64,000 bases of DNA. It comes from Vicugna vicugna (lineage: Eukaryota). The translations under genes and the position numbers were made by a program. The stretch lies in assembly GCA_013265495.1 (NCBI GenBank), contig MU057584.1, positions 226,608 to 290,607 on the forward strand. Direction: 5' to 3'. Under the pieces are notes generated by a model that had not been told where the DNA came from, ran no database searches, and was given only the letters and a program-made list of their open reading frames with translations. Below are positions 23,201-26,200 of the stretch, one piece after another (the stretch's first letter is position 1; each line of letters starts with the position of its first letter).

Positions 23201-26200
23201 TTTCTGTAGCTGAGTACGCTGGTGTCTGTGGTAGTGTGTGTGTCATGTGCATGTGTTTTACTGTGCGTGTATATCACTGTATTGGGCGTGTAGTATGCTT
23301 ATGCATTGTGTGTGTGTTCTGTGTCATTGTGCACATGTTGAGGTGTTGAATACATAGCACATTTTCTGTGTTGTATGTGAGGATGTTGAGTATCCGTGTT
23401 GTGTGTGTCTATTTTGTACATATTATGTTTTGTGTGTATATGTTTTTATGGGAGGATATGTTGCATGTCTGTGGTCTTGTTTGTTGCATTCATGAGATAT
23501 GTGTGTCTGTGTTTTGTGTGTATGTCCTGCGTACTGTTTATGTGCTATGCATATGTGTGTGTGTATTGTGTGTACATGGTGTAGGTTTGTGTGTATGTGT
23601 TGTGTGTTTGTGTTAGGTACTGTGTGCTGCACGTATTGTGTGTATCTGTTGTGTGCATGTGATATGTGTCTTGTGTGAGTTTGTGTTGTATTCTGTGCTG
23701 TCATATGTTGTGTGCACATGTTTGTGAGTTGTGTGTGTGTCTGCAGTGCACATGCGTGAGTGTGCTGTTCCTGTGTGATTGTCACCTGTGTGTGTGTCTC
23801 TAGGTGAGGATGGGATGTGTGAGTGTGGTGTTACTGTTTGTATGTATAGAGATTCACCTCCTCCACTTCCAGAGAATCACATTATAGACACTCCACTGAG
23901 AGCCAGCAAATCCTTGTGGAAGACGTGCCACGCCAGGACCCAGGTCCTCCCCTGTGCTCAGAACCATGATCTGCCACCCTCCACATGGGAACTCCCCACT
24001 CCACTGGCCTCCTCAAACTGTAGGATATCAGCGTAGCTCTGATTCTCAGAGAAACAAAGGAGAGGAACAGGGGAAAGAGACTCACCCAGGACTCGGACGT
24101 TCAGAACCCCCATGCGGGACAGGTTGGTGGCACTGTTGGACACCAGGCACCTGTATGTGCCCTCGTGTTCCCTGGACATGGCATGGATGGTGAGTGTGCT
24201 CATGGTGTGGAACAAGCTCCTGATGGGCAGAGAGTCATTGGGGAGAAACCATAAGTAGGTGGGGTGTGGGTGAGACTGAGTCTCCACCGAGAAGGTCGCG
24301 TTGGAGCCTTCTATCACCTCAACCACCTCCCTGTTGGCCACACCAGACTTCAGCTTGATTTTGACGGGGTCAGGACCATCTGAGGGGACAAGAACAGTGG
24401 TAGAAGGAACAACAGCTTCAGTAACAGCTCTCTTAGGGCGAACCTGGGAAGTCAACAAATACTAACTTTTCTCCCCACCCAAACTCTGGGACCATTACAG
24501 AGAAGACGCAAGAGCCTGGTGGTGATTAAATGTCTTCCCTGGGTAGATAGGAAGACACAGCTAAGCATTCCAGCAAATGCTCTTTCCTCACCCCTACCCA
24601 GGCAATATTTTGGATCAAACATCTGAAAGTTAAAGAGCTCAGTTTTAGGGATGTCAAGTTGGATGTTCCAGTAGAATCCAAGGAGAAGACGCCGCACAGG
24701 TATGCGCCTGGAGTTCAGGGGTGGACAAGCCCACGTTTGGATGGTATTGAAATCTGTGAGACTGAATGAGATCACCAAGGAAGTGGCTATCAGTGAGAGG
24801 CTGGGGAGAATGGAGAAGGACTTACAGTTCACGGCCAAGAAGGTGGGGTCACTGCTCTGGGCCTGGAGGACACCCCAAACTTCACATTGGTAAGTCCCAG
24901 CATCCTCACGCTGGACAGTTAGGATGGTGAGGTTCTTGCGATCCGTGGACAGCCACATGCGCTCGTGGAACACCAGGGGAAGACTGTTGGAGACCCAGTG
25001 GATGGTAATGTTGACGTCCTTGGTGTCACAGTAGAAGGTCACCATTTCCCTCTGCTCTATGGCAGTTCCTTGGCTGACTGAAATGGTGGGCTTGGCCAGT
25101 GGTTCTATGGGGAGGGGGGAGGGAGACAGAGGCAGAGAAATGATAAGGGAAGACCCAAGAAGACATAGTCACAGAGGGACCCAGAGGAGCAGGGATGGGT
25201 TGGAACTGTATGCAGACACCCTGGAGCTCAATGACTGGGCTCAAACGCTGGATCTACTTCTCATTCTAGGTGTGATCTTGAGCAACTCACTTCCCTTCTC
25301 CAAGCCCCCTTAGGTGGGACTGTACAAATAAAACAGAGGGTCTGGGACATGACAACGGGTCAATTAACATCAGCTGCAAAGAAATCAAGCTTGTAGCAGG
25401 GTTGACAGTTAGGTTCCTCCTACCCACTTCTTAGCCAACCTTCCCCACCCACAGCCATGACAGCCACAATCCACACCTTTACCCCTGCCCCCAAGACCAC
25501 TGATCAGACCAGTTATTGCCAGACCCTGGCTGAGCCAATCAGGTTTGTCCAGTTGGAACTTTGGACATAGAACCCTGATGGGTGCTTGAGGTGTGGAGAC
25601 AGAGATCAGAATGACAGCCTCATTTTCTGTGCCCACATCTCTGAATCTGCCATGAGTCTGAGGTGACCAGGGGAGTCCCAAACACAGATGGAACAACATC
25701 CTTCTCACTTTGGATGGTCTTAAGCAGGCTGGCACCACGGGAGAGCTGGGCTGCGGCTGGCAGACTCCACACGGTCAAAAGTGAGGCTGCAGGAGGAGAG
25801 AGGAGGCGTTCAGGGACGGAGAGGTGTGTTGGGGGTGTCCAGTTATGGTCTTCATAAGTGGAGGGAAGTCTGAGGTCATGGATATGACACTCCACCCCTA
25901 GCATCCTGACTCCTACCCACTACTTACGTACTGGTTGTGTGGCTTGAGGCCTGTTTTTATCTTCTCTGAGCCTCAATTTCCCCAGCTGTAAAATGGGAAC
26001 AATATCATCTGCCTCCTAGAATCGTGGTGGGTGGTAATGAATACTGGCAAGCTCTAACTGGATCCCCTGAGGATCACTGAGCTCTCTCCAATGATGCTCA
26101 CTCTGTGGGAGATGCATGATCAGCCTCCCCATTCCACAGAGAGGTAAACTCAGCTCAGATTGGTGAAGTCACTTTCCAAGACTATACAGTGAGTGTCAGA

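Follow-up and report, generated by a model that had tools for sequence, protein, structure and literature searches.

The locus analysed here raises the question of whether CEACAM20, a receptor gene of gut and testis, has died in the vicuña (Vicugna vicugna) or still encodes a receptor. The gene lies on the minus strand of a 64,000-nucleotide stretch of contig MU057584.1 (the window), and its second exon appears to carry both a frameshift and a lost splice donor. The first-pass annotation had offered two readings of these lesions, namely a very recent pseudogenisation, or a shift to an internal 'cryptic' donor that would complete the loss of the N domain. The coordinates given below are positions in the window, and all gene features are on its minus strand.

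The exon chain of CEACAM20 was built from the window by script under a GT/GC-AG constraint. All named matches of exon 3, when it was translated alone, are CEACAM20, with protein identities of 98% to Camelus bactrianus and 87% to pig. The chain consists of 12 exons that form a CDS of 1731 nt and encode 576 aa with zero internal stops. The donors (11/11) are GT and the acceptors (11/11) are AG, and the 11 exons other than exon 2 are clean, as had been claimed. The 576-aa product is identical to the alpaca protein XP_072824870.1 (P0060) at 574 of 576 residues, where the differing residues are V445L and P461S. An older alpaca record shares 572 of 576 residues with it, and the 576-aa proteins from three species of Camelus (P0057-59) share 555-557 of 576. 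These identities place the window in the alpaca/llama lineage, and the two differences from XP_072824870.1 point to a different individual or a different species of Lamini. The alpaca record XP_072824870.1 and the Camelus 576-aa proteins represent the same gene in the same 12-exon reading, with the exon 2-exon 3 junction LLKTIQKPLAKP. These database records are silent on the broken distal half of exon 2.

The coding part of exon 1 (28070..28121) starts with the ATG at 28121, encodes 17 residues plus 1 nt, ends in the donor CAG/GTGAGT and was recovered by tblastn of P0060 with 17/17 residues identical. A stretch with an ATG near 26,600 (26480-26640, in intron 1) was also considered as exon 1 and was rejected, the true exon 1 being 28121-28070. 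That stretch superficially resembles a CEACAM leader exon and contains a 22-nt near-match to the 5' UTR part of the genuine exon 1, but its similarity to exon 1 does not exceed that of shuffled sequence (score 26, against a mean of 15.5 and a maximum of 27 for the shuffles). The productive short form of exon 2 (25709..25786) is 78 nt long, runs from phase 1 to phase 1 and encodes the rest of the leader and 13 further residues; this part is identical to the RefSeq 576-aa proteins of alpaca and Camelus. Exon 3 (24826..25104) encodes the A1 Ig domain and starts with AA/CCA CTG GCC AAG. In the exon model, exons 4-6 (24379-24086, 22857-22579 and 21275-20997) encode the Ig domains B1, A2 and B2, exon 7 (18961-18847) encodes the TM segment, and exons 8-12 (18656-18571, 17807-17752, 17397-17362, 16886-16764 and 14243-14190) encode the cytoplasmic tail. 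Exons 2-7 each begin in phase 1, as is typical for Ig-domain exons of the CEA family. In P0060, Pfam identified four Ig stretches, of which the most N-terminal starts at residue 48, with none before it. The domain order found is leader, N part (13 residues), A1, B1, A2, B2, TM and cytoplasmic tail.

The tail carries the tyrosine motif YEVL...YCQM (16764-16886 and 14190-14243), which is the same in Camelus and whose second half ends in M. The second tyrosine motif reads YCQI in cattle and whale, and YCEM in horseshoe bat. The ITAM consensus consists of YxxL/I, a spacer and a second YxxL/I. Judged by its residues, the CEACAM20 tail motif is ITAM-like and departs from the strict consensus. In the cited passages of earlier work, a truncated N domain is reported for CEACAM20, with 38 residues in human (PMC3554727), and the order truncated N-A1-B1-A2-B2-TM-Cyt is given for dog, human and mouse (PMC2110893). 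These descriptions have the same domain order as the gene in the window, with a tyrosine motif in the tail. However, they use the long exon 2 with the human 38-residue N stub, whereas the stub here consists of 13 residues and the long version is impossible.

The reason that the long version is impossible lies in exon 2. This exon begins at 25786 and is preceded by the acceptor CTCCTGCAG. The conserved W-x-P-Q-T-H-G-R-F peptide falls in the +1 frame of the exon, out of the frame that is set by exon 1. Its counterparts in orthologues are GTPWTPQTHGRFSE in aye-aye, GTPWATQTHGRFIG in dog, GTPWMPQTHGRCRE in a bat, GTPWSCQTHGGCRG in pig and GTSRTPQIHGRSRE in green monkey. The shifted peptide has 9/10 residues in common with aye-aye WTPQTHGRFS, and on this comparison its likeness to the orthologues is far beyond chance. 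The frameshift is located at a CCCC run with one extra C (25670..25673), where the window reads ACT CCC CTG G and the orthologues have T-P-W. The earlier claim that an extra C at about 25670-25673 displaces the conserved peptide is thus borne out. The same extra C is present in the alpaca model P0066 (GTPL) and in the Camelus models P0001, P0062 and P0063 (ETPL).

The second lesion is at the ancestral distal donor, which is dead, again as claimed. The sequence AGAG at the ancestral exon end (25639) is followed by AT (25637..25638) where GT is expected. Exon 2 taken to this AGAG with the extra C removed measures 147 nt and keeps the phase. The next GT, in GAT/GTGGGC (25635..25636), scores 0.1 and is in phase, since exon 2 ending at 25637 measures 150 nt and ends in phase 1. 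Its T is joined to the AA of exon 3 (25104-25103) and produces a TAA; the script places the first stop at residue 68, so that the stop foreseen for this GT by the first-pass annotation was obtained. Reading past the dead donor also meets an in-frame TGA (25620..25622), where the Camelus-type model P0063 has Q. Every coordinate in that annotation was found to be correct.

The age of both lesions can be read from P0063. This protein is a read-through gene model, and at both positions where dromedary and Bactrian camel differ it agrees with dromedary. It reads T-P-L-V-T-S, which corresponds to the extra C, and Q-R-C-G (AGA TGT GGG), which corresponds to AT in place of GT, as the window does. TPL is likewise read in the 599-aa models from alpaca and Camelus. 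In pig and cattle, the TPW...QTHG peptide is intact. Since both lesions are in a Camelus-type model and the pig and cattle peptides are intact, both changes are camelid-specific. The comparison with other camelids and artiodactyls that had been proposed separates Camelus, which shares the lesions, from pig and cattle. Judging from these models, both lesions most likely predate the split between Old World and New World camelids (camel and llama). Very recent pseudogenisation is excluded on timing, as both lesions are already present in P0063. The alternative of an assembly or sequencing error, with a true sequence of CCC and G/GT, draws on the fact that indel errors typically arise in homopolymer runs. 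However, the same TPL is read in models from an older alpaca assembly and from Camelus, both lesions are readable in P0063, and two errors would not be shared by independent assemblies of different species. An assembly error in the window is hereby excluded, and the probability that we would leave to it is negligible.

With the distal donor lost, the productive route was sought among the remaining donors. Among the GT sites within and beyond exon 2, the proximal donor AAA/GTGAGA (25703..25708, exon end 25709) alone combines a good score with a frame of full length. Splicing from 25709 to exon 3 gives ...LLKTIQ-K-PLAKP... and the 576-aa frame, so the open frame claimed for an internal donor CAAA/GTGAGA with a 78-nt exon was obtained. 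The donor has A and not G at -1, which counts against it. It scores 3.6 bits, and the other 10 donors of the gene score 0.16 to 8.5, on an approximate 5' splice-site PWM that serves for ranking only. All other in-phase GT or GC sites score at most 1.3 and give a truncated product, or lose part of the leader.

The product of this donor is present in databases. The best match belongs to a 90%-identity cluster with 11 camelid proteins, which include 576-aa records and 599-aa 'isoform X2' records. The 576-aa records come from Vicugna pacos, Camelus bactrianus, C. dromedarius and a third Camelus record. Six cluster records of alpaca and Camelus all contain the LLKTIQKPLAKP junction. By these records, donor 25709 is not cryptic, its product being already annotated in RefSeq for alpaca and three Camelus species.

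The length of the segment between the leader and A1 was measured over 72 proteins, of which 13 lacked an anchor and 59 were measurable. The measurable proteins consist of 11 camelid (one of them a fused artefact) and 48 non-camelid proteins. The short junction (10-15 residues) is found in 22 non-camelid proteins from 20 species. Those are pig (X5), two emballonurid bats, Rice's whale, musk deer, cattle (X2), oryx, three deer, raccoon dog, red fox, two Prionailurus cats, macaque (X4), two lemurs, chinchilla, armadillo and mole. The junction follows the pattern …Q-K/G/E/S-xLAKP. The long form (27-37 residues) is found in 23 non-camelid proteins from 12 taxa. Pig has both the short and the long form modelled (P0002 and P0003). 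The term 'cryptic' consequently does not hold for a junction that is shared with 20 non-camelid species. A residue pair S-E or G-E follows the junction Q/R in 9 of the 12 long-form taxa and in the camelid long models. This pair is compatible with xGT GAG, that is with a GTGAG donor lying within the codons, as inferred from protein. The Logan-only mammalian protein P0070 exhibits a short-type exon 2-exon 3 junction in a single contiguous frame and cannot, for that reason, derive from unspliced DNA. The comparative support consists nearly entirely of computational gene models that possibly copy each other's logic. On this support, the proximal donor most likely goes far back as an alternative 5' splice site and was later left as the sole productive one.

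A third length class was also observed. The rodent-type proteins P0046 (Logan-only, 577 aa), P0042 and P0043 have a segment of 17 residues between leader and A1, which fits neither of the two forms above; one of these three proteins was reassigned by eye after it had been mis-measured by the script. The length of this segment suggests a third end of exon 2 in the rodent clade.

Two other routes around the lesions have been modelled in camelids. In the first, the long isoform would survive as the 599-aa 'isoform X2', where exon 2 ends at CTG/GTCACC (25668/25667) and a 28-nt mini-exon (25249..25276, encoding ITPRMRSRS + A) restores the phase. Models of this route exist for alpaca, Bactrian camel and dromedary (P0066, P0001 and P0062), and the mini-exon sequence does exist in the window. 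However, the donor CTG/GTCACC scores -2.9, the mini-exon has a weak acceptor context and is followed by GC instead of GT (CCA/GCGTTT), and its peptide is without counterpart in any of the non-camelid orthologues examined. The newest alpaca record listed is also the 576-aa form, without an isoform label. From these features the 599-aa X2 models look like constructs that keep the frame, and we regard the survival of the long isoform by this route as highly improbable. The GC after the mini-exon (25247-25248) is within a CpG, and the assemblies from which the X2 models derive may have GT there, which would be a CpG transition that distinguishes animals or species.

In the second route, exon 2 would be skipped entirely. 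The junction 28070^25104 joins G to AA and gives E; both junctions are in phase 1, the frame is open, and the skipping is modelled in two GenBank entries, from dromedary (P0061) and Ovis ammon polii (P0038). The usual CEACAM leader has 34 residues. Skipping deletes the second half of the leader, and judging from that usual length, secretion would probably fail. The acceptor and the proximal donor of exon 2 are, moreover, both good. Complete skipping of exon 2 is scarcely to be expected on these grounds.

The proximal donor leaves a plain pseudogene to be considered, in which CEACAM20 would be dead in camelids and the 576-aa frame would be a leftover rescued by annotation pipelines. Exon 2 does carry two lesions, and a search across exons 1-3 for short protein fragments derived from transcripts gave 10 matches, none of them camelid. 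In the cited parts of two papers, CEACAM20 is reported as not identifiable in horse, so that loss of the gene does occur in mammals (PMC7042247), and a dN/dS below 1 is given only for the B1, A2 and B2 exons, with much of the gene weakly constrained (PMC2832619). However, the lesions are shared with Camelus, and yet the 11 other exons, the 22 splice-site dinucleotides and the 1731-nt frame are intact. Read through the proximal donor, the 576-aa frame has neither stops nor frameshifts, and it is intact in four annotated camelid species despite lesions that appear to be older than their divergence. Both lesions are also confined to the part that the proximal donor removes.

The rate of change points the same way. 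The productive frame differs from Camelus at 19-20 of 576 codons, counted as amino-acid differences. The unused exon tail and flanking intron, as translated in P0063, differ from the window at 8 of 74 codons (Fisher p 0.007-0.009), or at 7 of 73 codons when the composite junction codon is dropped (p 0.019-0.024). Per codon, the productive frame thus shows about one third of the divergence from Camelus that the unused sequence next to it does, which argues against a pseudogene, in a crude test that counts amino-acid changes only, takes 74 codons of one mis-modelled protein as its neutral yardstick and weakens on removal of a single codon. By this measure the productive frame of CEACAM20 looks to be under constraint. 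Three RNA-seq runs of one study contain 0.29-0.32 of the words sampled from a stretch that is 59% exon, and are uninformative on splicing. Weighing both sides, a dead gene is decidedly improbable. On the sequence evidence, camelid CEACAM20 is most likely an intact and functional gene that has lost its long isoform.

The following mechanism is proposed. Mammalian CEACAM20 exon 2 would have two 5' splice sites, a proximal one in ...CAA A/GT GAG... and, some 70 nt beyond it, a distal one. The distal route would have been lost in the camelid stem lineage through a 1-nt insertion and the replacement of GT by AT at the distal donor, which leaves the proximal donor at 25709 as the only productive one. 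This donor would join the leader and 13 residues straight to the A1 Ig domain, and the product would be a 576-aa L-A1-B1-A2-B2-TM-Cyt receptor practically without an N-domain remnant. Camelid tissue presumably uses the proximal donor, and the distal half of ancestral exon 2 (25639..25708; 13 residues and then frameshifted) would now effectively be intron and drift as such. The earlier proposal of an N-domain-less receptor that was kept open while the 3' half of the exon decayed fits this evidence, and its product is a RefSeq protein; the part of the proposal that does not stand is a new shift of the splice site. An exon with two donors becomes fixed for one isoform when mutation of one donor makes the other constitutive.

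A broader reading goes beyond this mechanism. Camelids could, as a whole lineage, be natural knockouts of the long CEACAM20 isoform, in which the distal arm is unproductive and the choice of donor tunes the receptor level. The exon 2 with two donors would then be an ancient regulated switch in mammals. The GT at 25636, with its junction TAA, would likely make a target of nonsense-mediated decay, and there would be no choice between two proteins. We consider this broader reading unlikely.

Returning to the fixation of an old alternative donor, the camelid exon can be compared with the published account of CEACAM20. In the cited passages, Kammerer and Zimmermann (2010) describe a 'variable truncation' of the N domain exons of CEACAM20 and limit their analysis to the 'first common 27 codons' (PMC2832619). 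Those 27 codons are about the length of the 78-nt short exon 2 found here. The same passages leave camelids, the two donors and the lesions unmentioned (PMC2832619). A literature search for CEACAM20 N domain, splicing, camel and alpaca retrieved no paper on exon 2 of camelid CEACAM20. The single paper retrieved that covers both CEACAM20 and camel or alpaca treats CEACAM1 in those animals, in the parts cited (PMC7042247). The principle here is the same as in other cases of alternative 5' splice site choice with loss of one site, and nothing in it is mechanistically unusual. The 576-aa product is already annotated and the case is ordinary.

The relevance of the locus is slight beyond annotation hygiene. 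An apparent frameshift together with a dead donor need not mean a pseudogene if there is an older alternative donor upstream of them. Among the camelid models, the read-through ones and the older 599-aa 'isoform X2' ones are probably artefacts. The camelids add one clade in which the last N-domain remnant is dispensable, which fits an exon that has been published as variably truncated and weakly constrained.

Some features of the neighbouring sequence were also recorded. The introns at 23000-23900 and 15700-16700 contain long TG/CA-rich, short-period low-complexity stretches. The region at 6-10 kb is the most GC-rich part of the window (0.56-0.57). The zinc-finger genes and IGSF23/PVR are expected to adjoin CEACAM20. 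A hint of such a neighbour comes from P0041 (704 aa), a fused model of Camelus ferus that extends beyond CEACAM20 into another gene; 30 of its residues, from one exon of that gene, match 6276-6365 on the minus strand at 97%. The GC-rich region that includes this match is probably the 5' part of the neighbouring gene.
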